Of a stretch of 64,000 nt of DNA, positions 366 through 50,810 are shown in pieces. The position numbers were made by a program, and so were the translations under genes. The notes beneath the pieces are model-generated. The model had not been told where the DNA came from and ran no database searches. It saw nothing but the letters and a program-made list of their open reading frames with translations. Source of the DNA: a virus. The stretch lies in UHGV virus genome UHGV-1558314. One strand, given 5' to 3'. Positions within the stretch are counted from its first letter, which is position 1, and the number at the start of each line of letters is the position of its first letter.

Positions 366-389
366 ATTTTGGGATGTTTGTTTTTGTTA

Positions 390-1484
390 TCATACAACGA
401 CGGTATCTCGTTTGCAATCTGTTCTGTCGAATATCGAGCAACAATATGATGCAGATTGCTCTTTGATTGCAATAGCTTCGTCATTGTCAAGTGATGAAAT
501 ACCATCTATGTATGCTTTTGTATTGCCAGCGATGTCATCATTTGTTAGCAATGCTGCACGACGTTCAGTACCAAAGAAGCCAAAGCACAATTGACGCTGC
601 AATGCTTCACGAGAAATCTTGTCATCAAACTCGGATTTCATGTGTTGCATAAATTCGACAATATCATCAATGTCGCATTGAGTAAAGTCAATGTACAATT
701 TATGCATGTACTTGAATCGTTTGTAGTCTGTTGCAAGAATTTCTGGGTGCACAATGAACAACGTCTTTTTGCTGTCTATTGGATTTGCAATGACTGACGC
801 TTGAACATAATCAACAAGCACGCCAGATTCACGAAGTTGCTCAACTGTTTTGCCAAATATATGCCCAAACGTGTCATCAAACCACTTCAAGTATACTTCG
901 TTGTCTTCATCTTTTGATGCGCCAACAATGTAAATCTCATTGACTCCAAGCGCTTTAAGACGAGTGTCAGATAGCATCGTGTTCAATTGATGCTGCACAT
1001 ACAGCATTGGGCTGCTATGCAAAACTGTTTTGACAATCTCACAAGCAATGTCCATATATGCATAGTCAAGCTTTGCAGATTTTGACACATACACTGCACG
1101 TTGCTGCAATGGCTCAATTGCTGAGCATGTGGTCACAAAGTTGCCAACACATTCTGCTACTGCAATGTCATGCAAGTCATCTGCAATGTACACAATACTT
1201 GACAAGTCATCAAATGTTTGAACAAGTTGCTGAAGCTTTGTTTTGTAATTGCAGAGCATCAATGACTTGATGTTGCAATTGCCAAGCATTGTCTTGATGA
1301 GTCGTTGACCTGCTTCAGTGCTGTCACCAGAAATGACATGCACATCGCAGTCAAACCAGTTCAACATGTCGATTGCATGCCGAACGCCATATTGCATTTG
1401 TTTTGCGAACTTGCCAGATTCATTGAACAGCATTTCACCTGACATAATGCCGTCAAAGTCACATACGATTTGAAGTCTGTCCAT
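390..1484 (-). CDS. HAD-superfamily phosphatase, KdsC-like N-terminal domain plus uncharacterised C-terminal domain
   Basis: HAD motifs VCDFDGIM (DxDG), ISGDS, IADDLHD in the first ~165 aa; pattern resembles KdsC/YrbI sugar-phosphate phosphatases. Confidence 0.55.
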   Translation of the reverse strand: MDRLQIVCDFDGIMSGEMLFNESGKFAKQMQYGVRHAIDMLNWFDCDVHVISGDSTEAGQRLIKTMLGNCNIKSLMLCNYKTKLQQLVQTFDDLSSIVYIADDLHDIAVAECVGNFVTTCSAIEPLQQRAVYVSKSAKLDYAYMDIACEIVKTVLHSSPMLYVQHQLNTMLSDTRLKALGVNEIYIVGASKDEDNEVYLKWFDDTFGHIFGKTVEQLRESGVLVDYVQASVIANPIDSKKTLFIVHPEILATDYKRFKYMHKLYIDFTQCDIDDIVEFMQHMKSEFDDKISREALQRQLCFGFFGTERRAALLTNDDIAGNTKAYIDGISSLDNDEAIAIKEQSASYCCSIFDRTDCKRDTVVV

Positions 1485-1848: not shown

Positions 1849-4800
1849 TTAACAAATTGATGACGTGCCATCAGTATTTGCTACAACTGTCAATGCACTA
1901 TCAAACTCATCTTGTTGCAATACATGGTCAACTATGAGTGTTTTGCGAATTGCAGAAAGCTTGGTAAGCAACTGCATCAACACTTGCTGATAATTGATAT
2001 TGTTGACATCATGCTCAGCGCCAACAATCTGCCCATTGCTAAGCTTGCCACTGATTTCGTCAATGAGCAAGATGTTGCCCACTTTGTTTAAGCGTTGAGT
2101 CAAAATGAGATGCACGATTGCAAGACCTGCGAAAGTTCCTTCCATGCCAGACATTTGACTTACACTTCGAATTGACTTCGAGCCCATCAAGTCAATCATC
2201 TTCAACACATTGTTGTCATTGATGTCAAAGAACACTCGGTAGTTCAATGAATCCAGCAAATCATTGAGCTGTGCATTCAGTGATGTTGCAATTGCTGCAA
2301 AGACATATGAAACTAAGCCTCGTTTGCTTGTGCACTGCTTATATGCATTGTACACCAAGTTTGCAATGTTCCACTTTTTCGAAGCTTGCAAATCTTTCTT
2401 GAGAGCTTCAATTCGCACATTGTTTGCTGATAAGTCTGCTTGCATTGTTGCAATTTCTGCATTGATGCTTAGCAGTTTTGAGTTCGCTTCAGTTTCATGC
2501 TGCTTAGCATCATCAATGTCGACTTGCAATGCAGCATTTGTTGTAATATGCTGCTGAGTTTGCTGTGCATGTTCAAGTGCAAATGCTGCAGCAGTCTTAT
2601 CAATCTCAAGTTGTTTAAGCGCAGACTCATATGTCGCTTTCTTATCATACTCTGCTTGAGCAATTTCAAGTTCAGCATTTATTGCAGCCAGTTCTGATTC
2701 TACTGTAGATTTTGATTGCAATACATCTTGCTTTGCTTGTTCAGCTTTACGTTTGATGTCTGCAAGTTGATTTGTGATATCTGCAATTTGCATTTTGACT
2801 GCTTCGACTTCAAGCAATGTTGCTGCAGTAGCCATTGGTTGTGCAATGAATGCATCTAAGTCTCTTTGCGCATTGACTACAGTTCTCTGCAAATCATTGA
2901 GCTTTTCTGCATGCATGTCATATGCTGCTTTGTGTGCTGGATTCAGTGCAGCAATTATTGCATTTGAATCTGTAACATCTATGATTGCTGCTTGCAGTTG
3001 CTCAATTTCATACTTCAAATTGCCAATTTTGACAACATTCTCATTGAATTGCTCTGTCTTTTGCGCACATTCTTGACGCAACTTAGCAAGCTCAGTTGAC
3101 AACCACAGCTTGTATGCTTGTCCTGTGCCAGATGTCAAGTCATTTGTACATACAGGGCATTTGTCGTTTTCAAGTTGCTTTTGCTTGTCTATAACATTGT
3201 CGATGTTTGTTTTTGCAGCAGATATTTCTGTTCTAAGTGCATTTTGAACAGTGTTGATGTCTTCAATTTGCTTTTGCAAAGCATCTATTTTTGCCCGAGT
3301 GTTTGCATTGTACGACTTGCCAAGATTTATCAGCACAGAATCAATGTGCTGCTTTGCTGCATCATATGCAAGCTTTGATTCATCAAGCTTTGTTCTGTAC
3401 AATGACTCTGCATGCGCAACTTCTTTCTGCACTTTTGCAGATAGCTCATTCTGTTTTGTAAGCAGCTCAGCATATGTATTGTGCAGCTGTGAGCCAGATG
3501 CTATGACATTTGTGTATGCTGTATTAGCTTCATTGTCAATATTAGTGAGTTGCTGCTCAATCTGTGCTTTTGCTGTTTGCAACTTAGACATATCTTGCAA
3601 TGCAAGTGCAGCAATGTCAAGCTCAACTTTGTGAATCTTTGCAATGATGCCATCGATATTTGCTGTTGCATCTTCTATAGTTAAGATGTCTGCAGGAATT
3701 TGATGTAGTTTCTTTGAGAGCTCTTCTACTTTTGCACGAGCTTTTGTAAGCTTCGCGGACCACTCTTTTTGATTATCTTGTCGTAACTGCAAAGAGTAAT
3801 TGAGTTCATTGCAAGTTGTATTGAGAGACTCAAGTTCTGCTTTTATTGCAACATCAGTCAATGCGGGCTTACTAAGGCCATCAAACAATGCAGCCTTTGC
3901 AGCATCATTAGAATTGCCAAGCTGTACAAATGTATTGATGCCAAGAGTATCAAGTAGCCAGTCATTCAATGAATTTGAGTCCATTGCAATGATTTGGTCA
4001 AGTAGTGTCTGATTGATACAAACATATCGCGACAATTCCCAGATAGAGCCAAAGATTGCATATAGCGTGTCTTTGATTTCATGCTGCGGCACTACGTAGT
4101 CATCTGACAATCTTACAAGCTGAACAGTCTCATTGACTGCTGACACGTTATCTCGCCATGAGCCATCTGCATTTATTCGAGAACCTCGTTTGAATTTGCG
4201 TTCAAGTGTTCGAATCAATTTGTAGTGAACATTTTGACCTGCTACTACATGCACAAAGACACAAGAAGCTTCAAGCTTATCATATGACTCATTGTCAATC
4301 AATTTGTCATTGAAGTATGTCAAAGCGTTCTGCTTTGTTGCTGCAGAAGACTGTTCAGCGTCAATAAAGCCAGTCAGCAGCCATTTGATAAGTCTGAAGA
4401 TTGTAGTCTTGCCATTGCCATTGTTGCCTCTAACTTGTGTAAGCTGTGCAAGATTGTCAAAGCTGACATCAACATCTTTCAATGCCATGAACTGATTTGC
4501 TTTAACATTTTGAATGACATATTTTGCAACTTCAGTGTCAAAAGACAATTTATCAATTTGTTCATCAATCAATGACTTGAACATGTCAACAAACTGCTGA
4601 GCATCTTCAGTAGCAACTATGGCATTGCGTTCAATGTATGCATTGACCCAGTCAAGTGCAGCGTCTTTAAGCCATTCAGCAGTTTGAACCTTTTGCAGCA
4701 AATTGTCGCCATTTGCGTCTACAGCATTGATTGAATCAATGACAGCAGAATCATACAGAATGTCAATTGCAGCAACAACATATGAACTTACAAGATTCTG

Positions 4801-5775
4801 TGCAATGCGCTCAACAATACCAGACAGTTCGGGCTTTGTGACCTTTGACTTGATTTTGATTTTATTGATGCGGCCAGGGTTGATGAGTGCAATCTTGTCT
4901 GTTTTGACATCATTATCAATTGTGATTGTATGATAATGCACAAGCTGCTCAAGTGGATGCCACTCTACCACAATTCGCTTGTTGTCAATATCGATGTCAA
5001 GCAAGTTGTAGCCATGTTCTGCAGTACCATGCTGTATTGCAGTGTCATTCAACAAATAGTCGCCTTCACCAAAATCTCTGACAATTGGCGAGCCGCAATA
5101 TGTTAATGTCTTATCACCAGCAACCCATATTGCATGCTTATGAATGTCACCCATTGCAACAAAGTTGCTATTAAATTGCATTGCATCTATACGACTGTCA
5201 TTGTCACCACGAACAATACAATCATCAAAGTTGACACAATTCTTTACAGGGTCATGGAACAGCTCAATGACACACATTGATGACAATGCTGCAATCTGCG
5301 ATTCATCAAGTGATGCCCAAGGCGAATATGTGCCACCAGACCACTTCTCATTTTGAGCCCATACTGCAGCAGCAAAACCAGGTGCAAGCAGTTCAACTCT
5401 TGAACTGTTGATATACTTGATTCGCTTGTCATCAATTGCAGTTACAAGCTTGTCAATGCTATCTGTCCACTGCATTTGTGAACCATCACCAGCATCAAAT
5501 GTGTTATCACGTTGCTTCAAATCATGATTGCCAGCAGTAATGACAATTTGAAGCTTGTCATTGACTTCAAGCATGCCTTTGAGCAGCTTAACAAACAGCG
5601 ACTCTTCAAGTGAATTGCTATTCCAATGCTCAAACACGTCGCCGACAATGAATACAAACTCAACTGACTTTGCTTTGTCAATTAGTTGTTTGTTGATGTG
5701 CTCATATTCTACGAAACGTCGTAAATGACCTTGTCGAACATTATATTGAATGTCTGCTATGTGAAGTGCTTTCAT
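1849..5775 (-). CDS. fused Mre11/SbcD-like nuclease and Rad50/SbcC-like ATPase
   Basis: N-terminal metallophosphoesterase motifs (LHIADIQ, GDVFEH, GNHD, GDIHKH); Walker A GNNGNGKTT; long coiled coil with CPVC zinc hook; C-terminal signature SGMEG, Walker B LLIDE, H-loop DHV. Confidence 0.8.
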   Translation of the reverse strand: MKALHIADIQYNVRQGHLRRFVEYEHINKQLIDKAKSVEFVFIVGDVFEHWNSNSLEESLFVKLLKGMLEVNDKLQIVITAGNHDLKQRDNTFDAGDGSQMQWTDSIDKLVTAIDDKRIKYINSSRVELLAPGFAAAVWAQNEKWSGGTYSPWASLDESQIAALSSMCVIELFHDPVKNCVNFDDCIVRGDNDSRIDAMQFNSNFVAMGDIHKHAIWVAGDKTLTYCGSPIVRDFGEGDYLLNDTAIQHGTAEHGYNLLDIDIDNKRIVVEWHPLEQLVHYHTITIDNDVKTDKIALINPGRINKIKIKSKVTKPELSGIVERIAQNLVSSYVVAAIDILYDSAVIDSINAVDANGDNLLQKVQTAEWLKDAALDWVNAYIERNAIVATEDAQQFVDMFKSLIDEQIDKLSFDTEVAKYVIQNVKANQFMALKDVDVSFDNLAQLTQVRGNNGNGKTTIFRLIKWLLTGFIDAEQSSAATKQNALTYFNDKLIDNESYDKLEASCVFVHVVAGQNVHYKLIRTLERKFKRGSRINADGSWRDNVSAVNETVQLVRLSDDYVVPQHEIKDTLYAIFGSIWELSRYVCINQTLLDQIIAMDSNSLNDWLLDTLGINTFVQLGNSNDAAKAALFDGLSKPALTDVAIKAELESLNTTCNELNYSLQLRQDNQKEWSAKLTKARAKVEELSKKLHQIPADILTIEDATANIDGIIAKIHKVELDIAALALQDMSKLQTAKAQIEQQLTNIDNEANTAYTNVIASGSQLHNTYAELLTKQNELSAKVQKEVAHAESLYRTKLDESKLAYDAAKQHIDSVLINLGKSYNANTRAKIDALQKQIEDINTVQNALRTEISAAKTNIDNVIDKQKQLENDKCPVCTNDLTSGTGQAYKLWLSTELAKLRQECAQKTEQFNENVVKIGNLKYEIEQLQAAIIDVTDSNAIIAALNPAHKAAYDMHAEKLNDLQRTVVNAQRDLDAFIAQPMATAATLLEVEAVKMQIADITNQLADIKRKAEQAKQDVLQSKSTVESELAAINAELEIAQAEYDKKATYESALKQLEIDKTAAAFALEHAQQTQQHITTNAALQVDIDDAKQHETEANSKLLSINAEIATMQADLSANNVRIEALKKDLQASKKWNIANLVYNAYKQCTSKRGLVSYVFAAIATSLNAQLNDLLDSLNYRVFFDINDNNVLKMIDLMGSKSIRSVSQMSGMEGTFAGLAIVHLILTQRLNKVGNILLIDEISGKLSNGQIVGAEHDVNNINYQQVLMQLLTKLSAIRKTLIVDHVLQQDEFDSALTVVANTDGTSSIC

Positions 5776-5795
5776 ATTCTAAATGAGATTTAGAT

Positions 5796-5846
5796 TATAT
5801 GTTGATATTGTACAACATGCAAAATGCACTTGCATTTTGATACAAC
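5796..5846 (-). promoter_or_regulatory. conserved intergenic motif copy 1 (putative promoter/operator) upstream of the Mre11-Rad50 gene
   Basis: tatatgttgatattgtacaacatgcaaaatgcacttgcattttgatacaac; contains palindrome TTGTACAA and inverted repeat CAAAATGCA-ct-TGCATTTTG; ends ~50 bp upstream of ATG 5775. Confidence 0.45.
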
Positions 5847-5854
5847 GTATGTCA

Positions 5855-6199
5855 TTATTTTGCAAGCATTTTGCTGATTGCATCTATCACAGTTTCACTG
5901 AGCAAGTAGTAGACAACGCTTATCAGCAATGATATCAGTACTGCAGCTGTGATAAATTGCAACGCATTCACAATTGCACGCACAAATGTTATCTGTGTGT
6001 TGTATGCAAGCACTATGCAGCATAGCACAATAATGACACACCAGACTACAATTGCATATGCAGGCATCAATGAATTTGTCCATATGCAGTACAATACAGT
6101 AGTTAGCATCAAAAATGCTATTGCTCTGATGACTGACACAATGATGTCTATGTAGAGCTTCATTACACGTAAATGAACTCTTGGCTTATGCGGTTTCAT
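5855..6199 (-). CDS. small multi-pass membrane protein (GtrA-like size and topology; speculative)
   Basis: Three to four hydrophobic helices. ORF-track start 6265 overlaps upstream gene; likely start at 6199 or 6163. Confidence 0.4.
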   Translation of the reverse strand: MKPHKPRVHLRVMKLYIDIIVSVIRAIAFLMLTTVLYCIWTNSLMPAYAIVVWCVIIVLCCIVLAYNTQITFVRAIVNALQFITAAVLISLLISVVYYLLSETVIDAISKMLAK

Positions 6200-7437
6200 C
6201 ATGACTTTATGTACAATTCTGCAAGTTGTCTGGTGTACAATCGTGGATTGTGATATGCTTTCCAATATGCAGTAGACTTTATTGCAGCAAGAATCTCATC
6301 ATAATGTTTGACTGCTTTTGCTACAACTTCATCAAGTACATGCAAATCTTCTACACTAACAAGCAGCCATTTTTCTACAATGTCAATGAATTCTTGATTG
6401 CAATTAAAGCCATATTTGTAGTTGCAAGTGTCAAGTACAAGTGGGATGCAGTCATTTGTCAGTGCTTCAAAAAATCTACGAAGACTGAAACAATTCTCAT
6501 CATATGATGGAATGCTTAATGTAAACTTGGCAGTCTTGATGAGTTGCAAATACTCTTCGTATGGAATCAGAGGACCATTGTGCTTCCACTGATTGTTATG
6601 TCGTCTTGTTGTGTACTTGAACAAAAACTTTGAACTGTCAAGCTCACAAAGATGGTCCATGCGTAAAATGTAGTTATAGCGGTCTCTTCTATCAGGCCAA
6701 CTGTCAGTCATTGCAAACACAAAGTCTCTTTGCTTGTCACATTTTGCTGACATACCTCTATGCTGACACATGCAGTACCAATATTGCTGCGATGGACTGA
6801 ACTCGAACTTTGAGTGATGCTCACTGCCATCTTTGCATTGTTGAACGTAAATATTGTCAGGCACAAAGTGAAAGTAGAAATGTCGAATTTGCAAGCCGTC
6901 AATGTAGTCAAGCTTATGCTGCAATGGGTCCTCACAGAAATTGTAACACTGAATGCGTTTTGCTGCAGCATACTCAGCAACTATGAATGTGCACACCCAT
7001 TGCAATGCGATGTCTTCACTCTTCAAAAAGTCAACAAGTGGCTCATTTGGATGCGCTTTGCATTCATTGAACATTTTGTACCACTTGCATTGCTCCATGT
7101 CATACTTGGAGACTGTATTGCCATTAAAAAATGACACAGTATCAATTTTGAATGCCTCAAGTTGTTTATGCACAATGTCGATTGCTTGTGCATATGTGAC
7201 AGTCTCATCAGACATTATTTGTGCAAACTTGATTGGATGCGCATGCAAATTTGCAATTGTGTCTGCTGACATTTTGCGCTGTGTATGATAATCGACATAC
7301 AAAAACTGACACTTGTCTGTAAGCAATTCAAGCATTGCTACAGATTTCCATCGAATTGCTTGAAAGAAATTGAAGTGCGCAGTTTGAAAAATGAGATGCG
7401 TAGGCTTGTCAGAATGAGTCAAAGTTTGCATGGACAA
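6199..7437 (-). CDS. glycosyltransferase-like protein (exostosin/GT47-like C-terminal motif), paralog of 10462..12018
   Basis: Shared motifs with 10462..12018: NFCEDPLQHKLDYID, PSQQYWY, FTLSIPSYDENCFSLRRFFEALTNDCIPLV (S-x-R-x-x-E...C-I/V-P-L-V). Confidence 0.5.
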   Translation of the reverse strand: MSMQTLTHSDKPTHLIFQTAHFNFFQAIRWKSVAMLELLTDKCQFLYVDYHTQRKMSADTIANLHAHPIKFAQIMSDETVTYAQAIDIVHKQLEAFKIDTVSFFNGNTVSKYDMEQCKWYKMFNECKAHPNEPLVDFLKSEDIALQWVCTFIVAEYAAAKRIQCYNFCEDPLQHKLDYIDGLQIRHFYFHFVPDNIYVQQCKDGSEHHSKFEFSPSQQYWYCMCQHRGMSAKCDKQRDFVFAMTDSWPDRRDRYNYILRMDHLCELDSSKFLFKYTTRRHNNQWKHNGPLIPYEEYLQLIKTAKFTLSIPSYDENCFSLRRFFEALTNDCIPLVLDTCNYKYGFNCNQEFIDIVEKWLLVSVEDLHVLDEVVAKAVKHYDEILAAIKSTAYWKAYHNPRLYTRQLAELYIKS

Positions 7438-8594
7438 ATGTCGCAGTTATGTTGATGTTTGTGTTTATTTATGAAGTCATATGTCACTGCAAAAAAGTGC
7501 TTTGCAATGTCATATCGAGTTTTCAAATATGCTGCTTGTCGTTCACAAAATGCTGCATAAATATCTGGGTGTTGTTTGAATGCTGCAATGCGTTGCTGTA
7601 CTTGTTCTGCAGAATGCACATATGACACTTTGCTCAAATATACATCATCTGCAAATAATCGTTTGTCTTTGTCAACTGCGCAATCAACAAAAGTTGCAAT
7701 TCGTGCAACAATTGCTTCACCGACACGATTTGGTATTAGCCCATATTGCTCATATTGCTGTTCGCCGATAGCAATGTGTGCTGCTGCATATGACATTGCA
7801 TATGGCACACTATAAAATGGCACACTAAAATCAAATGAACAATTTGACTGCAGCAATTGTGTTTGTGCATCAGACAATCTACTTGTCAAGTTGCCTGTAT
7901 ATTTGTGCTCACCAAGAAAACTTGAGCGACAGCCTGAATCTACATAGTATCGAATGACTTTGTTTATGCGACTGTCAGATAGCATATGCCAATCTCTTGT
8001 AGCATATATCAAGTCTACTGTTTTTGCGCCAATATGACGAGGCTCTATCGCAACATTGCTGTATGTTGGCAGCATAAACAATGGCAGCCATTTGACATTG
8101 TTGAACACTGAATGCTCATTTGACAAATTCATGCACTGGCTAAGTTCAAGTACTGGCTCATCATACACGCCATGTAGCTCAACTCTGCCTGCATGCACAA
8201 AGTTGACACGCTTAAATGGAAATCGCATATCAGTGCAAACTGTCATTCTTGCTGCAATAGACATTCGCCACATAGCATGCAGCTTAACAACTGCTTCTGC
8301 TTGAGGTCGAGGCAACATATTTAGCAAATCAATCCAGCCGCCCCACAAAATCCAAACATCATTTGAACAGATGTTGAATTGCAAACTCAATATGTCTTCT
8401 ACTGTTGTAGCAATAATGTCATGCCCATTGATGCTTGCAAGGTGTTTTCGTTGATTTGCAATAATAATGACTTGACTGAATGGAGACTCTGGAAATGACA
8501 CAAGCGCTTTTGCAAACAACACGGGTTCTTGCGACACCAAGTTGTTTGAGTATGGGTCGATTATGCAATCAAGCTTGTGTATGAAGAGTCTCAT
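7419..8594 (-). CDS. hypothetical protein, paralog of 12015..13181 (second gene of duplicated module)
   Basis: Shared segments with 12015..13181 (ILWGGW/IFWQGS, MRFPFKRV/LRFDFDKE, LIPNRVGEAIV/LLPNRWVEGVL); overlaps upstream gene by 19 nt. Confidence 0.5.
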   Translation of the reverse strand: MRLFIHKLDCIIDPYSNNLVSQEPVLFAKALVSFPESPFSQVIIIANQRKHLASINGHDIIATTVEDILSLQFNICSNDVWILWGGWIDLLNMLPRPQAEAVVKLHAMWRMSIAARMTVCTDMRFPFKRVNFVHAGRVELHGVYDEPVLELSQCMNLSNEHSVFNNVKWLPLFMLPTYSNVAIEPRHIGAKTVDLIYATRDWHMLSDSRINKVIRYYVDSGCRSSFLGEHKYTGNLTSRLSDAQTQLLQSNCSFDFSVPFYSVPYAMSYAAAHIAIGEQQYEQYGLIPNRVGEAIVARIATFVDCAVDKDKRLFADDVYLSKVSYVHSAEQVQQRIAAFKQHPDIYAAFCERQAAYLKTRYDIAKHFFAVTYDFINKHKHQHNCDICPCKL

Positions 8595-9325
8595 TTTGCA
8601 GATGATTCAAAAAATTTGTAGACATCGCAGTTAGCAATGTGGTCATTCCAAGCATCTTCAGAGTCTGCAACAAAGCCACAATGACAGCGTTTTGGCTGCC
8701 AAACTGGTTCAACTACTGCAGGCATTGCTTCTTCAATAGTGTTTGCAGGTTCATTATCTGCTGGCAATACTTCAACGTCTTCAACTTGTGCTGCATCTTG
8801 TTGTGCACGCTGCTCAATGACATTGCCCTCAAAGTCAAACTGAATGCCAGCTTGTTCTGCTTTTGTACGATTATTACGAGCTACGAACAAATACGCAAAG
8901 ATGAATTCGACAAGCGCTATGGCAAGTGACTTCAGTGCATTGACAAGAAGCATGATGCCTGTTGATAAATGGCCGTCAAAGCTCAAAAACACGAACACAC
9001 ATGTAAAGCATGACATAAACACTGCAATCAGTGGAATGTTCTTGTATTTTGGCAACAAATCAGAGTTGACTGATGTAAGCAACACAACGAATTGATAACC
9101 TATTGCAAGCCAATAGTCGCCAAACACTGCATAGATATGCGTAGTGATGCCAATAAGAAATGTGATAGTCACAATCATAATGAGCAACACACTTGTCAGA
9201 AAGTCTGCAATAGAATTGCTGAGCTTGTCATACCAGTGTTTGTTGACAATTGACGTGTTGGCTACGCGCACTTTACTAAGTGCATCTATGCCGCTTTTGA
9301 TATTTGATTGTGCTTTCATACACAT
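8591..9325 (-). CDS. membrane protein with C-terminal Cys/His cluster
   Basis: Several hydrophobic helices; C-terminal CHCGF...HIANCD. Confidence 0.5.
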   Translation of the reverse strand: MCMKAQSNIKSGIDALSKVRVANTSIVNKHWYDKLSNSIADFLTSVLLIMIVTITFLIGITTHIYAVFGDYWLAIGYQFVVLLTSVNSDLLPKYKNIPLIAVFMSCFTCVFVFLSFDGHLSTGIMLLVNALKSLAIALVEFIFAYLFVARNNRTKAEQAGIQFDFEGNVIEQRAQQDAAQVEDVEVLPADNEPANTIEEAMPAVVEPVWQPKRCHCGFVADSEDAWNDHIANCDVYKFFESSAK

Positions 9326-9331
9326 ATAACG

Positions 9332-9469
9332 TTATATCATATCTACACACAAAGCAAATGCTACTGCAAGTGCAGCCATAATTGCATATACGACTATCGA
9401 TGCAGTATAATCTGATTCAGGATTCCACTTATCAGGTGTGTTAAGCTTGTGATACTTGTCTCGTCTCAT
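9332..9469 (-). CDS. small ORF (45 aa) with C-terminal hydrophobic helix, below ORF-track cutoff
   Basis: Own translation: MRRDKYHKLNTPDKWNPESDYTASIVVYAIMAALAVAFALCVDMI. Confidence 0.25.
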   Translation of the reverse strand: MRRDKYHKLNTPDKWNPESDYTASIVVYAIMAALAVAFALCVDMI

Positions 9470-9572
9470 CTTGAGTCAAAAAATGATGGCTGCTGCTACA
9501 TTTTGTGAAATCATGTGCAGCAGCCATCTGGCAGGTTTCTTGCTTTGTAAAGCTTGGATAGAGGATGGATTT

Positions 9573-9623
9573 TATATGTTGATATTGTACAACATGCAAA
9601 ATGTATTTGCATTTTGATACAAC
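9573..9623 (-). promoter_or_regulatory. conserved intergenic motif copy 2
   Basis: tatatgttgatattgtacaacatgcaaaatgtatttgcattttgatacaac; near-identical to copy 1 (2-3 substitutions). Confidence 0.45.
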
Positions 9624-9631
9624 ATATATTG

Positions 9632-9847
9632 TCATTTTGCACAGTCTGATGCAATTAAATCTTTGTCAAAGCATTCATCTATAATGTCTTCAATAAGATA
9701 CGCTTCGACATTGTTAAGCTTCAAGATATCTACGAGTTTTGCTTTGATATCGCAAGCTAATGCAGATTCGACTGTATGCAATATGACTGATGATACGACA
9801 TGCTTGTCTGTCATCATTTGTAATTGCTGTGGTGTTACTCTACTCAT
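9632..9847 (-). CDS. hypothetical small protein
   Basis: 71-aa ORF abutting the kinase-like gene. Confidence 0.35.
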   Translation of the reverse strand: MSRVTPQQLQMMTDKHVVSSVILHTVESALACDIKAKLVDILKLNNVEAYLIEDIIDECFDKDLIASDCAK

Positions 9848-10416
9848 GCGCCAAGTTCAGCTAAGCATTTCAACACATTGTCTTGCAGACTTGCATTGTT
9901 GTCAATTTCGACAATATGCAATGGTGAGTTCTTTCGCCACTCATCATATGCAGCAATCATTTCATTGCGTTTGCTGACATCAATGTTGACATCACCGCAA
10001 AAATTATCGACAAAATCTGGCACAACATCACGCTTGCATAAGAACACTACGTGCGGCAATGTTGCAAGCTTCTTTTCATATGCTTCAAAGAATGCTTGAT
10101 GCTTATCAGTGTGCAGCTCTTTGTAAAGCGTTGTGTTGAAGATTTGATGCGTGATGAATGAACGGTCACACAAAAACGTTGCTTTGCCAAAGCCTTGAGA
10201 GTCATTTCCAATGAACTCTAAGAAGAAGCGCCAATCATAAAAGAACGCTTCATTGAGGTCCCAAGGTTCGGGCATTGGGTCATCACCTGACTCATGCTGC
10301 TGCCACCAAGAACGAGATGTTCGTTTGCAATTGATAAACCATGGGCGCCACTTCATCAATTCATTGATGAGTGTTGTTTTGCCTGAAGCTTCTACACCTT
10401 CAAATATCGCTATCAT
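9844..10416 (-). CDS. P-loop nucleotide kinase (dNMP kinase / thymidylate-kinase-like)
   Basis: N-terminal IAIFEGVEASGKTT Walker A and FLCDRS (DRY/DRS-like) motif; resembles phage dNMP kinases and thymidylate kinases. Confidence 0.55.
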   Translation of the reverse strand: MIAIFEGVEASGKTTLINELMKWRPWFINCKRTSRSWWQQHESGDDPMPEPWDLNEAFFYDWRFFLEFIGNDSQGFGKATFLCDRSFITHQIFNTTLYKELHTDKHQAFFEAYEKKLATLPHVVFLCKRDVVPDFVDNFCGDVNIDVSKRNEMIAAYDEWRKNSPLHIVEIDNNASLQDNVLKCLAELGA

Positions 10417-10461
10417 TGTGTATTATGTTTGATTTTTGATTACAGTACAACGTAGTTATGC

Positions 10462-12018
10462 TCATTGCACTTCTACGAATGGCTCTTTCAACACAAAGCT
10501 GTCACCATTGCAACATGCGGCTGAGCCATCGTCTGCATCAAGTGCGCATGACATATCAGACTTGCAGAACTTGCAATATGAACATGACCATGCATGACTC
10601 ATAAAGTTGTTTGCTTCACAAATTACACAGCGCTCATGTGAAAGTGTATTGTCGCAATTGTCACAAGACTTCTTGATTGGCACATCTTTATTGATATATG
10701 CAAGATGCAATGCAATATCATACACAAAGTCACCCGTATATTGCTGAATGAAATCAGTGTGCCACAACTCTTTTAACAATTGTGTATGTCTATATGGCTG
10801 AACAATGTCTTCAAGATGCTGCAAGTCATCATCGCTAACCATGAGCTTCTTAATGACAAACTGTTTGAACTGCGGCCATCTGTCAAACATATAGAGTTTG
10901 CATGAGTTGTGCACAAGTGGAACACAGCCAAGCACAATGCTTTCACAGAATCTACGCAAACTAAAACAGTTTGCATCATATGACGGCACAATCAATGTGA
11001 ATCTGCTATGCTTGATGAGTTCAAGGTATGTGTCATATGGCAGTAGCTTGTCTGACAATGGCTGCTGTTGCTTGTCCCTGCTGAAAAATCTGAACACAAT
11101 GCCTTTATCAATTGCATCTTGATTGTGCAGATGCATGAGTTTGTTGATGAGTTCTGTGCGTTCAGTTTTGTCTCGCCAAGTATTCGTCAATGCAAATGCA
11201 AAATTCAGTCGCTTGTCATCAAACGTCGCTTCAATGTCATCCCAAGTTTTGTCATGCAAATACCAGTATTGCTGTGATGGGCACCATCCATAATATGCAA
11301 TAGCGTCTTGTTCTGCTGTAACGTCATACACATATGCAGAATTGTATTCAAGGCCAAGCCCTTTGACATTGTTGCAGTCATGAAAGTACCAATGCTGCAC
11401 TTTGAATATCTTTGATGCACTGAATGCGCTTTCATATGGCCCTGAATAGCGATAGTCAATGTAATTGAGCTTGTGCTGCAATGGGTCTTCGACAAAGTTG
11501 TTTATGACTGTGCCTTGTTGTTTGCCATTAGTCTTGCGAGCATTCAATGCAATATTGTACTGCATAATGACTGACAGCATCTCATACACTACATACATGA
11601 GTGCTTTGTAGACTGAGCCTGCTGCGTCAATTAGCGGCAAATCACGTTTGACTGATGCAGTACCAAATGTCTTGCAATATGCAGAAAATGTATCAAGTTC
11701 TGCCTGTTGAAATGAATTGCATGCGCCATTGAATATGTTGAATGTTGCAATGTAGCTCATATTACAAGATGTCATTGACATATCAAGACGCTTCATAATG
11801 TCAGCAATGCGACATTGAGCAAAATCTGACACATCAACATATTTGACATGATGACCTGATGCAGTCAAGCCAACTGCGACTTCTTTCATTTGTGGCACAA
11901 AGCCTACTACAATGAACAAGTCATCTTTGTTTGCTCGTTCAAACATTGCTGCACTTTTCCAAGTCAATGAATTGAAAAAGTCTATGTAGCCAGTCTGTGT
12001 GATGATATGTGTTCTCAT
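10462..12018 (-). CDS. glycosyltransferase-like protein (exostosin/GT47-like motif) with C-terminal Cys-rich extension
   Basis: NFVEDPLQHKLNYID, PSQQYWY, FTLIVPSYDANCFSLRRFCESIVLGCVPLV; Cys-rich tail (CDNCDN...CVICE...CSYCKFC). Confidence 0.5.
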   Translation of the reverse strand: MRTHIITQTGYIDFFNSLTWKSAAMFERANKDDLFIVVGFVPQMKEVAVGLTASGHHVKYVDVSDFAQCRIADIMKRLDMSMTSCNMSYIATFNIFNGACNSFQQAELDTFSAYCKTFGTASVKRDLPLIDAAGSVYKALMYVVYEMLSVIMQYNIALNARKTNGKQQGTVINNFVEDPLQHKLNYIDYRYSGPYESAFSASKIFKVQHWYFHDCNNVKGLGLEYNSAYVYDVTAEQDAIAYYGWCPSQQYWYLHDKTWDDIEATFDDKRLNFAFALTNTWRDKTERTELINKLMHLHNQDAIDKGIVFRFFSRDKQQQPLSDKLLPYDTYLELIKHSRFTLIVPSYDANCFSLRRFCESIVLGCVPLVHNSCKLYMFDRWPQFKQFVIKKLMVSDDDLQHLEDIVQPYRHTQLLKELWHTDFIQQYTGDFVYDIALHLAYINKDVPIKKSCDNCDNTLSHERCVICEANNFMSHAWSCSYCKFCKSDMSCALDADDGSAACCNGDSFVLKEPFVEVQ

Positions 12019-13181: not shown

Positions 13182-13878
13182 ATACTTTGCAATTATCTAT
13201 TACATGTTGATATTGTACTTCATCTATGATGTGATTTGCAATGACACCATATGAGGCGTCATACATTGGCATCTTCTCATATGACAATGCTGCGTCAAGA
13301 TTGCATATCACATAATTGCAATGCACAATGTCATCTACATTGTCACTAACTGCTACGATATTGACACACTTTGCAAGAAATGCATCATCAAAGTCTACTT
13401 GATTGCATGCAACCTCATAATCTGCTGCGCTTCTTGGGTACCAATATAACTCAATGCCAGCACTACTAAGTAGTCGCAAGCCATCTATGTGATGATACAA
13501 GTCAACAAAATGCACTTGCTTAACGCCTGCTTGCAAAATAAGCTTTGCGCAATCAATGCATGGACTGTATGTTACATACAGCACTGCGTCATTTGCGGTC
13601 GCATTGCCATATTTGCACAGCTTCATCAATGCGTTTGATTCTGCATGCAAAACTTCTTTGTTGGTTTTGATACCTGCCGATGTTGCATGCTCACAACAAT
13701 TTGACATGCCAGTTGGCATGCCATTGTAGCCATCTGAAATTATGCAACCATTTTTTACAAGCAATGCGCCAACTTTTGCTCGCTGAGCATATGAATTTAA
13801 TGACCAAAGCTCAGCCATTTTAAGATATATGAGATTTCGTTGAAACTGCTTTGTTTCAGACCAAGTTAGCCATTTCAT
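13153..13878 (-). CDS. dCMP deaminase (cytidine/deoxycytidylate deaminase family) with C-terminal extension
   Basis: Zinc-binding motifs VLHAESNAL (HxE) and SPCIDCAKLI (PCxxC). Confidence 0.85.
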   Translation of the reverse strand: MKWLTWSETKQFQRNLIYLKMAELWSLNSYAQRAKVGALLVKNGCIISDGYNGMPTGMSNCCEHATSAGIKTNKEVLHAESNALMKLCKYGNATANDAVLYVTYSPCIDCAKLILQAGVKQVHFVDLYHHIDGLRLLSSAGIELYWYPRSAADYEVACNQVDFDDAFLAKCVNIVAVSDNVDDIVHCNYVICNLDAALSYEKMPMYDASYGVIANHIIDEVQYQHVIDNCKVYEQTIHFEI

Positions 13879-15289: not shown

Positions 15290-15405
15290 AATATATTGTA
15301 CAACATGTATTGAGCTTTTGCACAACATATGTTGTTAAAATATCATCATTGTACAACATAAAGCGCATATTTGCACGTTGTGTTGCTAAAAATATTGTTA
15401 TTGTA
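15290..15405 (-). promoter_or_regulatory. cluster of three TTGTACA(A/C) boxes upstream of gene 13883..15265
   Basis: attgtacaacatg, cattgtacaacat, ttattgtacacaa within ~110 bp. Confidence 0.4.
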
Positions 15406-15440
15406 CACAAAACAAGCAGACTGCAATTGCAGTCTGCTTG
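15405..15440 (-). terminator. rho-independent terminator after gene 15488..16033
   Basis: Perfect 28-bp palindrome caagcagactgcaattgcagtctgcttg followed on the minus strand by TTTTGTG. Confidence 0.6.
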
Positions 15441-15487
15441 CACTTGTTATTAACCCTTAAAATCAATGACACTATGTCAATGTCATT

Positions 15488-18873: not shown

Positions 18874-18891
18874 TTATATTGATAATGTACA

Positions 18892-20487
18892 TCAAAGTTT
18901 GAATTTTTGCACTTTTGCATCTACTGGCATCTTTTCAGCGTCATAGATTCGTTTTCGAGCAGCAAAGTGTTGCATGTCATAATTGCAGTAGCAGTAGCCT
19001 TTGCGAAGCTTGACAAGCATATCACTGTGAATTGTAAGCTTATGTGCAATATCAATAATGATTGCTTTCTGCTTAAGTGGATGCTTACGCAACAGTCGCC
19101 CAATTGACTGCAATGTTACGTTGTCAGATTTGCCAATCATCAAGAATGCAGCATAAAACCAAGCATGCACAGATACGCCTGTAGATAATGTGCCAGTTGT
19201 TGCAATCATGATGTGTCTATCAGGCTCTGCTTCCATCATTGCAAGCATGTCTTTGCGTTCATGCAAGGGTACATCACCTCTAATGATGTGAACAACCTTG
19301 TCAACACCAGACTGCTGTATGAATGTTTGACATGCATCATAGATGTTCTGCACATGGTCTCGTCGTTTGCAAAGCACAAGAGCATTTTTGTCAAGCGAAC
19401 AAATGATTTTTGCAATGAGCTTGTTAGCATCGACGTAGTTCATGCAATGATGTTGTTCTGCTGGAAGCAGTCTTGCAGTGTTATCAAACACTTCAGGATG
19501 CTCTTCAAGATACTGCACAAATGACGCATCATATTCTGCTGAATGCTCAATGACTACTCGTTTAATTTCAAAGTCAGACACGATGTTCTTTTCGAGTGCT
19601 TGAGCTACACCAAATGTACCCAATATTGGCCCAATGTAAGATTCAATTGTCAAACGAGCTGCAGTGTGCTCAAGTGGCAATGAACCAGAAACTCCAAGAC
19701 GATAATGAGCTTTTGTGCAATGACTGAAGATTTCACGAATTGATGCTGCAGGTGCACCATGAGCTTCATCAGTTACAATGAAGTCGAACTGTTCGAAAAA
19801 ATCTGCTGGCATATTAACAAGACTTTGATATGTGCCGACAACCATATCTGCATCTTGCATCTTGTACTCATTGCGAACGCCTGAATGGATTTTGTAGAGC
19901 TTGTAGTTCTTGTTTGCTAAATCTGACTCATTTTGTTGATAGCTGACAACAATATCGTCAAATGCTTGTGACACGAGATGCACCGAGGGCACAATCATAA
20001 GTGTTTTGCCATTGATTCTCTTGCTATCTTTTAAGAAGCGACTAATTACATAAACAAGAGCTGTTTTGCCATAAGAAGTCGCAAGGCGTAAACAGCATTT
20101 CTTGAATTTGCAAGCAGTCAAAATAAACTTGAGCTGGTCGTCACGCATGTCAAATGGCATGTCAAGACATTCTGCCCATTGCTCAAGTTCTTCAAGCGAC
20201 ACAATGCGGTCAAAGTTGTCAATGAGGCCCTCAATCTTGACTTCGTATGGAATTGGCTTACGCAATTGTAAGTCCCAAATACGCTTCCATAAGCCAAATG
20301 GTAGGTATATGCCATTAAACACATAGCAAATTTGCCCATTCCAATCTGTTTTGCGCCCTTTGCGCTTATTGACTGCTGCTGCAACAAAGTTTGGCACTTC
20401 TGCAGTAGCTTCAGCGTATAATTGCTTGGCTTCCAAATCATTTGCTTCGACAATCTGAAGCAAATCACCTATGACTTTGAGTCTCAT
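18892..20487 (-). CDS. superfamily-2 DEAH-box DNA helicase
   Basis: Motif I TSYGKTAL, motif II IVTDEAHGAPA, motif VI-like QSIGRLLR. Confidence 0.8.
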   Translation of the reverse strand: MRLKVIGDLLQIVEANDLEAKQLYAEATAEVPNFVAAAVNKRKGRKTDWNGQICYVFNGIYLPFGLWKRIWDLQLRKPIPYEVKIEGLIDNFDRIVSLEELEQWAECLDMPFDMRDDQLKFILTACKFKKCCLRLATSYGKTALVYVISRFLKDSKRINGKTLMIVPSVHLVSQAFDDIVVSYQQNESDLANKNYKLYKIHSGVRNEYKMQDADMVVGTYQSLVNMPADFFEQFDFIVTDEAHGAPAASIREIFSHCTKAHYRLGVSGSLPLEHTAARLTIESYIGPILGTFGVAQALEKNIVSDFEIKRVVIEHSAEYDASFVQYLEEHPEVFDNTARLLPAEQHHCMNYVDANKLIAKIICSLDKNALVLCKRRDHVQNIYDACQTFIQQSGVDKVVHIIRGDVPLHERKDMLAMMEAEPDRHIMIATTGTLSTGVSVHAWFYAAFLMIGKSDNVTLQSIGRLLRKHPLKQKAIIIDIAHKLTIHSDMLVKLRKGYCYCNYDMQHFAARKRIYDAEKMPVDAKVQKFKL

Positions 20488-21787: not shown

Positions 21788-21838
21788 TATTGTGCAACAT
21801 GCATATTCATATTGTATATGAATATGATACAACATGCG
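21788..21838 (-). promoter_or_regulatory. motif variant with 10-bp inverted repeat, upstream of gene 20568..21701
   Basis: tattgtgcaacatgc...atattcatat-tgt-atatgaatat...gatacaacatgcg. Confidence 0.4.
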
Positions 21839-21852
21839 AATATCATTTGCAC

Positions 21853-27950: not shown

Positions 27951-28015
27951 TGTTGTAGAGGTTTGTATACTATATTGATATATGATAATTGTACTACAAA
28001 TTTATCAAATTTGCA

Positions 28016-28133
28016 CTGATTTAATATATAATATGTCAATAAATTTCACATATAAAGTCTTTTCGCTTATGAAAACTACTCAACTCTGGTTTGAACGCCA
28101 GCAGTCAATCGCGGGGGGGCTCTTCGTGACACA
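28016..28133 (+). repeat. promoter/leader module, copy A (inverted partner at 31048..31160)
   Basis: About 113-118 bp near-identical to the reverse complement of 31048..31160, with 2-3 mismatches/indels by eye in the upstream part; contains ATG 28069 and G7 tract. Confidence 0.8.
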
Positions 28134-28769: not shown

Positions 28770-28804
28770 GTGTACATATCTTACAACATTCAAACATATA
28801 GCAT

Positions 28805-28858
28805 ATGAAAACTCCACAATTTTGGTTTGAGCGTCAACAAGGGCTAGCGGGGGGGCTC
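28805..28858 (+). repeat. diverged third copy of the leader module
   Basis: atgaaaactccacaattttggtttgagcgtcaacaagggctagcgggggggctc versus copy A; upstream part not conserved. Confidence 0.6.
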
Positions 28859-28861
28859 TAA
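28805..28861 (+). CDS. leader ORF copy 2 (MKTPQFWFERQQGLAGGL*) with G7 tract
   Basis: ATG 28805; G7 at 28849-28855; stop TAA at 28859-28861; about 75 percent nt identity to leader copy 1. Confidence 0.3.
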   Translation: MKTPQFWFERQQGLAGGL

Positions 28862-30985: not shown

Positions 30986-31047
30986 AGTCGCATATGCAGC
31001 TTCAAGTAGTGAACCATCTGCTTTGTTGATAGTGCCGCTGATAATAG

Positions 31048-46987: not shown

Positions 46988-47884
46988 TTACAGTGTTCCG
47001 CAAAGCAATTCACGTAAATCCATGCCGGCTTGTGTACTGTACTGAGCAATAAGATTACGTTCTGAATCAGACATACTCCAATAAATCTTATGCAGAGCTC
47101 TACGAATAATAGTATGAATGCCAGATGTGCTACAATTGAACTTCTTTGCAAGTTCTGCATGAGTTAACAAATCAGCATCGCCAAGGCCATACACATGTGT
47201 GAGTACAAGCTTTTCATTTTGAGTGAGTTGTTCAAATGCTCTTTGCAGAATCTTTGTGATACGTTTGTGAGCATCTTCGATTTCAAGAACTTCTTGGCCT
47301 GTTTTGAAGTCTGACCTCAAATCATTCTGAACTGGTGACCATGCGTCACCATCTTTGTCAAGTGTAGTGTCATCCTTGCTGATGAATTGCTTGCCTTCAA
47401 GAGCTCTTTCATATGCTCCACGAATACCAGTAGATAATTGTTGACTTGTCAGATTGAGTTCGTCAAGCACATATTTCTTAATCCAAGGATATGCATATGT
47501 GCTAAACTTTGCTTCACGAACTCCTGCAGGCAATACGCCTTCTACGTAATTCTTGGCTGCTATTGACAATCCAAGATTGCCTGCTTGAATGACGTCATCA
47601 AATGGAACCGAGCGTTTGCCAGATGCGAACCATAAGCTTCGTGCAACTGATATGACCAATCTTAAACAAGATTTGATAAGAGCTTCACGATTTTCTTGAG
47701 TCTTCTTGAATCGAGTAACATCACAATATCGCTTTGCAGTAGCCAGCGATTTGACTTCTTCAGGAGTAAGCTCATTCTCCATCCTCATTTGCTTGAGCTC
47801 TTCCTTTGTGTATAGACGTTCTCTTGTGATTCTACCTACGTCCTTTACGTAGCCTTGATTGATTTGTGAATTTGAACCTGCCAT
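46988..47884 (-). CDS. sigma-70-family RNA polymerase sigma factor
   Basis: Region-2-like LRLVISVARSL...FDDVIQAGNLGLSIAAKNY; region-4 helix-turn-helix LTQNEKLVLTHVYGL...LTHAELAKKFNCSTSGIHTIIRRALHKI. Confidence 0.75.
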   Translation of the reverse strand: MAGSNSQINQGYVKDVGRITRERLYTKEELKQMRMENELTPEEVKSLATAKRYCDVTRFKKTQENREALIKSCLRLVISVARSLWFASGKRSVPFDDVIQAGNLGLSIAAKNYVEGVLPAGVREAKFSTYAYPWIKKYVLDELNLTSQQLSTGIRGAYERALEGKQFISKDDTTLDKDGDAWSPVQNDLRSDFKTGQEVLEIEDAHKRITKILQRAFEQLTQNEKLVLTHVYGLGDADLLTHAELAKKFNCSTSGIHTIIRRALHKIYWSMSDSERNLIAQYSTQAGMDLRELLCGTL

Positions 47885-48017
47885 GGTTGTGTAACTTATT
47901 TAGTTTTAATTTGTTATATAAATTTAATCATTTTTTGTCACATATGAAAATGTTTTGCACATTATTGTCACATAAAGTGTAAAAAAGTTATGAACATTTT
48001 GTTAACACATGTAGACA

Positions 48018-50723: not shown

Positions 50724-50738
50724 GTTTGGATGGTTTTT

Positions 50739-50810
50739 TATATTGTACAATATGCAAAGTGCTTTTGCACTTTGATGCAAAGTACTGCGTACACAACATG
50801 CAATGTATAA
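50739..50810 (-). promoter_or_regulatory. motif variant with inverted repeat CAAAGTGC-tttt-GCACTTTG, upstream of gene 50145..50723
   Basis: tatattgtacaatatgcaaagtgcttttgcactttgatgcaaagtactgcgtacacaacatgcaatg. Confidence 0.4.

Follow-up and report, generated by a model that had tools for sequence, protein, structure and literature searches.

The genome of the uncultured jumbo phage UHGV-1558314, whose host is probably a member of the Bacteroidota, raises a question about a short non-coding element. In the 64,000 nucleotides (nt) of this genome that we analyzed, hereafter the window, the sequence tatatgttgatattgtacaacatgcaaaatg[c/t]a[c/t]ttgcattttgatacaac occurs twice, at positions 5796-5846 (site 1) and 9573-9623 (site 2); the two copies are 51 nt long and differ at two bases. 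What does such an element do, and which protein would read it? A preliminary description proposed either the binding site of a dimeric regulator or a phage-specific promoter. As we argue below, the two elements appear to be the best-preserved copies, and the most similar pair, of a family that has at least 13 promoter-like cassettes upstream of genes in the window. We assign a probability of roughly 0.7 to the reading that these are promoters, organized as composite cassettes of a promoter and a stem-loop.

The resemblance between the two copies reaches beyond the limits first given to it. A repeat finder aligns 5795-5864 with 9572-9641 (its family D6), that is, 70 nt at 90% identity, and reports weaker copies at 13194, 15277, 15348, 21806 and 50724. 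With up to three mismatches allowed, a 28-mer of the repeat matches the window at exactly two places, and it matches nowhere in 100 dinucleotide shuffles. A near-identity search of GenBank phages with the region returned no match; a third near-identical 70-nt double unit is present in a metagenomic contig (L120), upstream of a SWIM-domain gene and family-B DNA polymerase operon. The palindromes that had been pointed out inside the element are there: TTGTACAA is a perfect 8-bp palindrome at 5808-5815, and the inverted repeat CAAAATGCA/TGCATTTTG occupies 5820-5828 and 5831-5839, with the variant arm CAAAATGTA in the second copy. Both copies had also been called intergenic. This holds for site 1, which lies between a start codon at 5775 and a stop at 5855; site 2 is overlapped by an open reading frame (ORF) of 64 amino acids (9441-9635), which is most likely not a gene, because a 17-nt insertion in a close relative (L001) breaks its frame.

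The genes that neighbor the two copies all lie on the minus strand, as do nearly all ORFs of the window. The preliminary description read the element on the plus strand, the wrong one for its function, and missed its tandem structure. Read on the minus strand, each site consists of two tandem two-box units placed 30 nt apart. For example, the reverse complement of site 1 is TGCAAA-ATAATGACATACGTTG-TATCAA-AA-TGCAAG-TGCATTTTGCATGTTG-TACAAT-AT, followed after 29 nt by an ATG; that is, it contains two tandem units of the form TGCAAA-N16-TAnnAn. From the downstream hexamer of this site to the ATG at 5775, which opens a 1308-amino-acid Mre11/Rad50-like gene, the distance is 31 nt. Copies aligned on the hexamer have in common gTGCAAA, a variable 9-10 nt, (c/t)ATGTTG, TACAAT and AT, and the unit motif on the coding strand is agTGCAAA-N9-aTGTTG-TACAAT-AT. 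Its layout comprises a -35-like box, (g)TGCAAA, a spacer of 16 nt (rarely 17 nt) ending in aTGTTG, a -10-like box, TAcaAT, and then AT..A.ATA. The boxes are 16 nt apart in all strong sites except one, which has N17. That exception is a complete member of the family (13212-13240, minus strand), to which the partial copy already noticed at 13204-13218, itself real, belongs.

The motif is strongly enriched on one strand. The strict pattern TGCAA[AG]-N15-17-TA[CT][AC]AT has eight matches on the minus strand of the window and none on the plus strand, against an expectation of 0.65 per strand. With a 40-nt weight matrix, 13 minus-strand matches exceed 13 bits and two plus-strand matches are marginal, whereas shuffled sequence gives a mean maximum of 9.7 bits and 0.3 matches per shuffle. 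The sites score 10-39 bits when each is left out of the matrix in turn, and the matrix picked up sites at 18889 and 394 on which it had not been trained. All 13 matches in the window are on the coding strand and upstream of an ATG, almost all of them at short distance. The start codon usually follows 16-45 nt past the unit; measured from the hexamer, the distance is 18-37 nt at most window sites, and longer at the SSB gene and at site 2. The genes behind the motif are mainly those of DNA metabolism, among them the Mre11/Rad50-like gene, glycosyltransferases, SSB and polymerase. A mirror-image promoter on the plus strand, TGCAAA-N17-TACAAC, was considered and falls under the matrix threshold.

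Over 27 sites, the consensus is agTGCAAA.......t..aTGTTGTAcaATat..A.Ata.aA. Information peaks at TGCAA and at TGTTGTA..AT, and comes near 2 bits at TGCAA and at the G, T and A of TGTTGTA. Within the hexamer it is 2.0 bits at T, 1.8 at A, 0.9 at c, 0.6 at a, 1.5 at A and 1.6 at T; this TA...AT profile is that of the -10 element recognized by the sigma-70 family.

It is important to see whether the pattern recurs in sequence that played no part in building the matrix. A close relative is available as IMG/VR contig IMGVR_UViG_3300045988_152288 (174,628 bp), which is 94.5% identical to the window over positions 4285-13541. Two 21.5-kb stretches of this contig (L121 and L122, 43 kb in all) have no overlap with the window. 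The window-trained matrix finds 15 matches in them, 15 of 15 on the coding strand, and the best score on the opposite strand is 5.1 bits. Every match lies before the opening ATG of an ORF: 13 are at 16-68 nt, and one tandem pair stands 135 and 163 nt before a single ATG. Enrichment upstream of genes, which the preliminary description had named as its own test, is thus found in the window and in 43 kb of the relative. Of the two functions it had proposed, the phage-specific promoter is the one that these statistics support, with two boxes 16-17 nt apart, on the coding strand only, near start codons, and recurring in 43 kb unrelated to the training.

The same relative shows how individual cassettes change. 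At its site 1, a 30-nt deletion has turned two units into one, and the hairpin is gone; the junction, TGCAAA-ATGATAACATATGTTG-TACAAT, combines the upstream -35 box with the downstream -10 box and recreates the exact N16 spacing. The leader of site 1 has gained a 28-nt palindromic insert, and site 2 has gained a 17-nt partial unit. Over the 9.3 kb compared, the changes are within cassettes only, and no gene has been gained or lost. Since site 1 has collapsed with its boxes kept, the two-box geometry is apparently under selection, and the cassettes readily change their number of units. A small palindromic insert, (T)AATATATGTTCTCATATATTCGAA, is found in the leader just downstream of three promoter units in the relative (L116 ~3945-3975 and ~10906-10929, L121 ~6000-6030); the window has no match to it with three or fewer mismatches, and it resembles a miniature hairpin that is mobile or derived from slippage. 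As for relatives of intermediate distance, a word-indexed protein search gave nothing at E <= 1e-10, and an alignment search with the locus yielded, besides the close relative already described, no more than PAU, PTm1 and one megaphage. An exact 15-mer scan of IMG/VR gave mostly chance single matches among the matches listed, its useful yield being a second piece of the relative's contig. The lineage is sparsely sampled.

The second component of the cassette is a stem-loop. Most intergenic copies carry one over the TGCAAA box and the first half of the spacer; it is located between -45 and -14, overlapping the -35 box and spacer rather than preceding the promoter, and is AT-rich with no clear U tract. 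Across 28 sites, the segments from -34 to -3 fold with a mean energy of -5.84 kcal/mol, compared with -2.62 +/- 0.31 kcal/mol for column-permuted segments. None of 300 permutations reaches the observed value. Thus, the complementarity within sites is greater than that arising from conserved columns alone. The stems vary among copies in sequence, in arm length (3-12 bp) and in loop size, and it seems to be complementarity, not stem sequence, that is conserved. For example, the stem CAAAGTGC/GCACTTTG of the member at 50742..50769 shows a compensated change relative to the stem of site 1 (z = -3.2). Sites 1 and 2 both give nested hairpins; at site 1, the stem-loop is nested in a longer imperfect hairpin, in which GTTGTA of the upstream unit pairs with TACAAT of the downstream unit. 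The copies embedded in coding sequence (13217, 18889 and 394) have little or no stem. Wobble pairs in the imperfect stems, counted by eye, number three on the sense strand and two on the antisense strand, which is uninformative.

A hairpin abutting a -10-like box, TTGT..TA, also stands before the orthologous nuclease gene in the phages MA9V-2, PTm1 and PAU, and in PAU it takes the form of a canonical terminator, GC-rich and with a U run. Because the same layout occurs in these phages, we take the stem-loop to be the half of the composite cassette that acts as terminator or insulator, a role that we hold tentatively, at somewhat worse than even odds. Table 1 collects the members of the family found in the window, together with the features associated with them.

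Table 1. Two-box units, stem-loops and related features of the window, with matrix scores where available.
Feature	Position	Strand	Sequence or fold	Context	Score
Site 1, downstream unit	5807..5834	-	TGCAAG (5829-5834), 16-nt spacer, TACAAT (5807-5812)		43.6
Site 1, upstream tandem unit	5837..5864	-	TGCAAA (5859-5864), N16, TATCAA (5837-5842)		28.9
Site 1, stem-loop	5820..5839		CAAAATGCA/TGCATTTTG; -13.2 kcal/mol, z = -2.0	spans -35-like box and first half of spacer	
Site 2, downstream unit	9584..9611	-	TGCAAA (9606-9611), N16, TACAAT (9584-9589)		44.9
Site 2, upstream tandem unit	9614..9641	-	TGCAAA (9636-9641), N16, TATCAA (9614-9619)		37.0
Site 2, stem-loop	9597..9616		CAAAATGTA/TGCATTTTG; -15.2 kcal/mol, z = -3.6	arms match at 8/9 here, 9/9 in relatives L001 and L119	
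Intrinsic-terminator-like hairpin	9476..9528	-	GATGGCTGCTGC...GCAGCAGCCATC, then T run; -30.1 kcal/mol, z = -5.2		
Member	389..416	-	TGCAAA-N16-TATGAT	3' end of 364-amino-acid gene; upstream of gene running off the window; kept in relative L116	
Weaker member	10442..10469	-	TGCAAT-N16-TACTGT	ATG at 10416, 25 nt downstream	30.0
Member	13212..13240	-	TGCAAA-N17-TACAAT	within 3' end of dCMP-deaminase gene; ATG at 13181, 30 nt downstream	
Member	15295..15322	-		ATG at 15265 (460-amino-acid gene), 29 nt downstream	37.1
Member	15348..15375	-		53 nt upstream of member 15295..15322	38.7
Member	18884..18911	-	TGCAAA-N16-TACATT	found by the matrix, untrained at that stage	26.5
Weaker unit	21789-21801	-	CATGTTGCACAAT	near SSB gene	13.9
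Member	21824..21851	-	TGCAAA-N16-TATCAT	upstream of SSB gene (start 21701)	43.0
Member	27988..28015	-	TGCAAA-N16-TACAAT	divergent intergenic region; ATG at 27950, 37 nt downstream	34.0
Member	50742..50769	-	TGCAAA-N16-TACAAT	tail-gene region; ATG at 50726 downstream	43.1
Sigma-70-family factor of the phage	46988..47884	-	regions 2 and 4	candidate trans-acting factor for the motif	
Bacteroidota host-type promoter	47913..47949	-	TTTC-N19-TAAATTTA	upstream of sigma gene	

Some of these sites have further neighbors. A third, degenerate TACAAT lies at about 15400-15405, directly after a terminator hairpin at 15412-15441 and upstream of the two members there, and the member at 18884..18911 overlaps the 3' end of the helicase gene and is upstream of a 151-amino-acid gene. 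The terminator-like hairpin near site 2 lies ~55-110 nt past the promoter units and their -10 box, ahead of the next ORF. Another tandem promoter, in the relative's stretch L122, has a terminator ~60-90 nt downstream (L122 2739-2840). Together, the two terminators predict RNAs of ~85-100 nt, which may be small RNAs or attenuated leaders; these predicted RNAs have no Rfam match, and the whole window gives no Rfam match at gathering score.

If the sites are promoters, then which polymerase reads them? The answer depends in part on the host. We infer a Bacteroidota host because the window encodes a BACON domain, because none of its 55 start codons has a Shine-Dalgarno-like 4-mer at -20 to -4 (such 4-mers occur in 2.8% of random 17-nt windows), because its leaders are A-rich (42% A, 12% G), and because the distant relatives of the phage infect Flavobacteriia. 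A-rich leaders without Shine-Dalgarno sequences are consistent with Shine-Dalgarno-independent initiation, as in Bacteroidota. The relationship is visible in the nuclease downstream of site 1 (1849-5775, minus strand), a 1308-amino-acid fusion of a Mre11-like phosphoesterase and a Rad50/SbcC-like ATPase, as in the MA9V and PTm1 phages (PHROG 35725). It is 26% identical to its counterparts in the jumbo phages MA9V-1/2 of Chryseobacterium and PTm1/PTm5/pT24 of Tenacibaculum, and it partly resembles the nuclease of Sphingomonas phage PAU. MA9V-2 and the window also agree in the gene order SSB, helicase, ..., nuclease.

The primary sigma factor of Bacteroidota recognizes TTTG at -33 and TAnnTTTG at -7, 19-21 nt apart. 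Neither half of the motif fits: TACAATAT departs from TAnnTTTG, and TGCAAA at 16 nt departs from TTTG at 19-21 nt. A scan of the window for E. coli-type TTGACA/TATAAT promoters shows no enrichment, with 44 found and 46.5 expected. Other candidates were set aside as well. A Bacteroidota promoter on the plus strand (TTG ... TTTGCA) would have a spacing of 17-18 nt, as opposed to 23-25 nt, has no TA, and would be antisense to every gene; the sigma-54 (-24/-12) and T4 late (TATAAATA) patterns do not fit either.

The phage does encode a sigma factor of its own. The protein is 23-32% identical to its nearest phage homologues, with homologues in MA9V-1/2, PAU and PTm1, and its gene sits among tail and baseplate genes; an exact-protein look-up found no record of it. 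Since it has both region 2 and region 4, it is equipped to recognize both a -10 and a -35 box. When 59 ORFs of the window were scanned against Pfam, PHROGs and NCBIfam (49 of them with Pfam), no MotA, AsiA or other regulator emerged besides this sigma factor, and a tRNA scan of the window found none. For jumbo phages of this group, sigma factors but no RNA polymerase of their own have been reported (PMC7824862). The promoter upstream of the sigma gene is the only good host-type match in the window that is on the coding strand and upstream of a gene. In MA9V-2, the homologue of the sigma gene carries a perfect TATATTTG box, and host-type boxes of this sort abound in PTm1. An exact 15-mer of the sigma-gene promoter, AAATGATTAAATTTA, spacer bases included, recurs in three repeated promoters of MA9V-2 (L117 11299, 24052 and 41009); such conservation is unusually deep for non-coding DNA, given that MA9V-2 proteins are only ~26% identical.

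These observations suggest the following scheme. The host holoenzyme would first transcribe the sigma gene from its host-type promoter. The phage sigma factor, through its regions 2 and 4, would then direct transcription from the TGCAAA/TACAAT class of promoters, ahead of the genes for replication, repair and DNA modification. The stem-loops would act on RNA reading through from upstream, and the similar copies would serve as substrates for slippage or recombination that alters the number of units. That a holoenzyme containing the phage-encoded sigma factor reads the motif is, in our judgment, an even bet. We would regard as a long shot a more elaborate version of the scheme, in which the stem-loop is an obligatory part of the promoter, either presenting the -35 box on an extruded hairpin or cruciform or coupling upstream termination to initiation, and in which this arrangement is an ancient trait, along with the private sigma factor, of a PAU/PTm1/MA9V-like clade of jumbo phages. 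That version also holds that at least two of the promoters (window 9584-9619 and L122 2711-2739) drive ~85-100-nt, terminator-bounded small RNAs or regulated leaders controlling DNA-modification genes.

Several points weigh against the reading of these sites as promoter and stem-loop cassettes served by a phage sigma factor. Transcription would start at the motif, but the sites are candidate promoters by virtue of sequence statistics and analogy, and what ties them to the phage sigma factor is circumstantial evidence. The 27 sites of the consensus were chosen with the same matrix, and the consensus is hence somewhat circular. The host assignment is indirect, and an unusual specificity of its primary sigma factor could make the motif a class of host-type promoter. 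A strong terminator shortly after the promoter, as at site 2, is odd for the promoter of an operon. As for the stem-loops, duplication links several members, and the permutation test treats them as more independent than they are; the z-scores of single hairpins are modest, from -0.5 to -3.6, and several copies have weak folds or none. Elsewhere in the window there are GC-rich terminators with U tracts, and the stem-loops of the cassettes are unlike these; termination at them may be poor, or may not be their role.

How, then, do other explanations fare? Some of the same facts would be expected if the sites were ordinary early promoters for the host primary sigma factor, with the phage factor serving another class of genes. 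The geometry of the motif is generic for the sigma-70 family, the replication, repair and nucleotide-metabolism genes that it precedes are early or middle genes in most phages, the sigma gene lies amid tail and baseplate genes, and the corresponding promoters of T4-like phages, in the cassettes known as PeSL, are host-type early promoters. We nevertheless consider this explanation, though a serious competitor, unlikely, for the motif misfits the Bacteroidota -33/-7 consensus, which the phage uses before its own sigma gene and which is abundant in PTm1 and MA9V-2; the lack of enrichment in the TTGACA/TATAAT scan also speaks against it, and dedicated specificity factors typically have conserved sequences as long as aTGTTGTA together with TGCAAA. 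Operators for a dimeric regulator of phage or host, binding TTGTACAA or a TGCA..TGCA dyad, would account for the perfect 8-bp palindrome, for the perfect 14-bp palindrome ATATTGTACAATAT at 50740-50753, for the dyad around the TGCAAA box in many copies, and for the similar arms CAAAGTG / CACTTTG before the orthologous nuclease gene in PTm1. But TTGTACAA is palindromic only because the -10-like TACAAT comes after the conserved GTTG. The conservation is asymmetric, with TGCAAA always on one side at a fixed 16-17 nt and in one orientation relative to genes; the second repeat is variable, and the dyad differs among copies in arm sequence, length and loop, with TGCA half-sites spaced 6-11 nt, a pattern more in keeping with a folded structure than with a rigid dimer. 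Moreover, the coding-embedded copies and the collapsed site 1 of the relative have no dyad yet keep both boxes, and, apart from the sigma factor, Pfam turned up no helix-turn-helix regulator in the 49 window ORFs scanned with it. The dimeric-regulator site proposed in the preliminary description is therefore not supported, and we judge operators of this kind improbable.

The hairpin excess, the location of the sites near start codons, and the tight packing of genes on one strand, from which read-through RNA would carry the element, could also be taken to mean that it acts in polycistronic transcripts, as a processing site, a hairpin protecting 3' ends, or a translational operator. Yet the distance to the ATG, 16-163 nt, is too loose for an operator over a ribosome-binding site; the best-conserved parts, TGCAA and TGTTGTA..AT, are partly outside the stems and obey -35/-10 spacing; and hairpin-free copies retain the boxes, without any Rfam match in the family. 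A role at the RNA level thus strikes us as quite improbable. Finally, the two first copies are far more alike than other members (90% over 70 nt), units have been gained and lost between close relatives, and the relative has another small palindromic insert at three promoters, as might be seen after recent duplication, or for a small mobile palindromic element with no regulatory role. This explanation is largely refuted by ~28 sites with fixed box spacing, always on the coding strand upstream of genes and including untrained sequence, and we give it almost no weight.

Among described systems, the family comes closest to the promoter-early and promoter-middle stem-loop cassettes, PeSL and PmSL, that T4-like myoviruses carry (Arbiol et al. 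2010, PMC2839356; Comeau et al. 2014, PMC4122927). These are repeated composites of a stem-loop and a promoter that end at a start codon, with stems that vary between copies and phages, and they have been implicated in indels between close relatives (PMC4122927). The likeness to the elements studied here is considerable: both are ~50-70 bp, highly similar and intergenic, both place a stem-loop and a two-box promoter just before a start codon, and in both the stem sequence varies among copies. To judge from the few changes inside cassettes in one close relative, the copies here may likewise be sites of indels or slippage. The phage of the window, moreover, belongs to the wider sigma-encoding, T4-related jumbo group. 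The differences are also clear. The promoter here is TGCAAA-N16-TACAAT with aTGTTG, which matches neither the host consensus nor a Mot box; the stem-loop shares sequence with the -35 box and spacer, whereas that of PeSL/PmSL is upstream of the promoter; and there is no Shine-Dalgarno module (0 of 55 genes), which probably reflects the host phylum. In the 9.3 kb compared, only changes within cassettes are seen, with no gene exchange, and the cassettes stand before core replication and repair genes, not mainly in hyperplastic regions. Because promoter type, stem position and Shine-Dalgarno module differ, and only changes within cassettes are seen in those 9.3 kb, we would classify the cassettes, by analogy, as a variant of the PeSL/PmSL kind rather than a member of it.

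Other systems resemble one half of the cassette or the other. Promoters served by phage sigma factors, such as gp36 of phiEco32 and 7-11 and gp28 of SPO1 (middle promoters), also belong to phages that encode a sigma-70-family protein and no polymerase of their own, and also have a long, phage-specific consensus, unlike that of the host, repeated before a set of phage genes. Their consensus sequences are unrelated to ours, and the sigma factor here is a candidate reader of the motif. The Bacteroidota primary-sigma promoters share with the cassettes the same presumed host core polymerase, a downstream box that opens with TA, and a short, A-rich leader without Shine-Dalgarno sequence; their boxes, however, are found before the sigma gene here and throughout PTm1 and MA9V-2, and not at the cassette sites. 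In T4 middle promoters, a Mot box, (a/t)(a/t)TGCTT(t/c)A, is centered at -30, ~12 nt from the -10 box. As in the MotA/AsiA system, a phage-specific box here replaces the host -35 element in combination with a sigma-70-type -10 box before replication-class genes, but the box is TGCAAA at 16 nt, and no MotA or AsiA domain is present in the 49 window ORFs scanned. The promoters of the N4 virion RNA polymerase, a giant single-subunit enzyme, consist of a short stem with a 3-nt loop and have no -35/-10 boxes. In both cases a hairpin forms part of the phage promoter, a putative one in the window; here, in contrast, stems and loops are variable, the boxes have sigma geometry, and hairpin-free copies exist. 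In the literature, we did not find a TGCAAA/TACAAT consensus described.

The remainder of the window provides the setting for these sites. Its first part (1-24 kb) encodes the fused Mre11/Rad50-like nuclease (1849-5775), glycosyltransferases, dCMP deaminase (13153-13878), thioredoxin, helicase and SSB; between 32 and 62 kb lie the tail and baseplate proteins and a tape-measure-like protein. Several further features are worth recording. Two inverted repeats of ~110 nt, 97% identical and containing GCGGGGGGGCTCT, are located at 28024-28132 and 31047-31157, with a diverged third copy at 28801-28859. They flank a 2.9-kb segment with the only plus-strand genes of the window, and each copy stops shortly before a gene (28137, plus; 30985, minus; 28899, plus). 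Perhaps they supply three genes with the same promoter and leader, or else they mark the termini of a segment that can invert or move. On the minus strand, TATAAATATCA and GTAAATATCA, at 32565-32572 and 36957-36965, stand 33-41 nt before genes of the structural region (starts 32531 and 36931), and each is preceded by GTTCGATAAA. It is weakly possible that these two copies, the only ones, are T4-like late promoter boxes. A 300-nt direct repeat (87%) joins 21858-22157 to 63214-63513, 41 kb away; its first copy is in the 5' part of a homing-endonuclease-like gene (21853-22989), and the two loci are probably paralogous endonuclease genes. Lastly, the 1442-amino-acid protein encoded at 32603-36931 (minus strand) has no family match and many internal repeats spaced ~300-1000 nt (D4, D5, D8, D9, D13 and D16). 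It is probably a repetitive fiber or decoration protein, beside the BACON-domain protein (31259-31873).

The elements with which we began thus represent a newly described family of putative promoter and stem-loop cassettes, and a familiar type of phage regulatory repeat. In the literature we found no mapped transcription program for any Bacteroidota jumbo phage, and the family offers a testable class of promoter for such a phage, with a consensus, ~28 sites, and a candidate sigma factor that is apparently expressed from a host-type promoter. It suggests a cascade from host sigma to phage sigma, and it carries the concept of recombinogenic promoter-stem-loop cassettes past T4-like phages of the classical type. 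Possible uses of the sites include orthogonal promoter and sigma parts for Bacteroidota, and markers for the annotation of operons in the genomes of related metagenomic phages.

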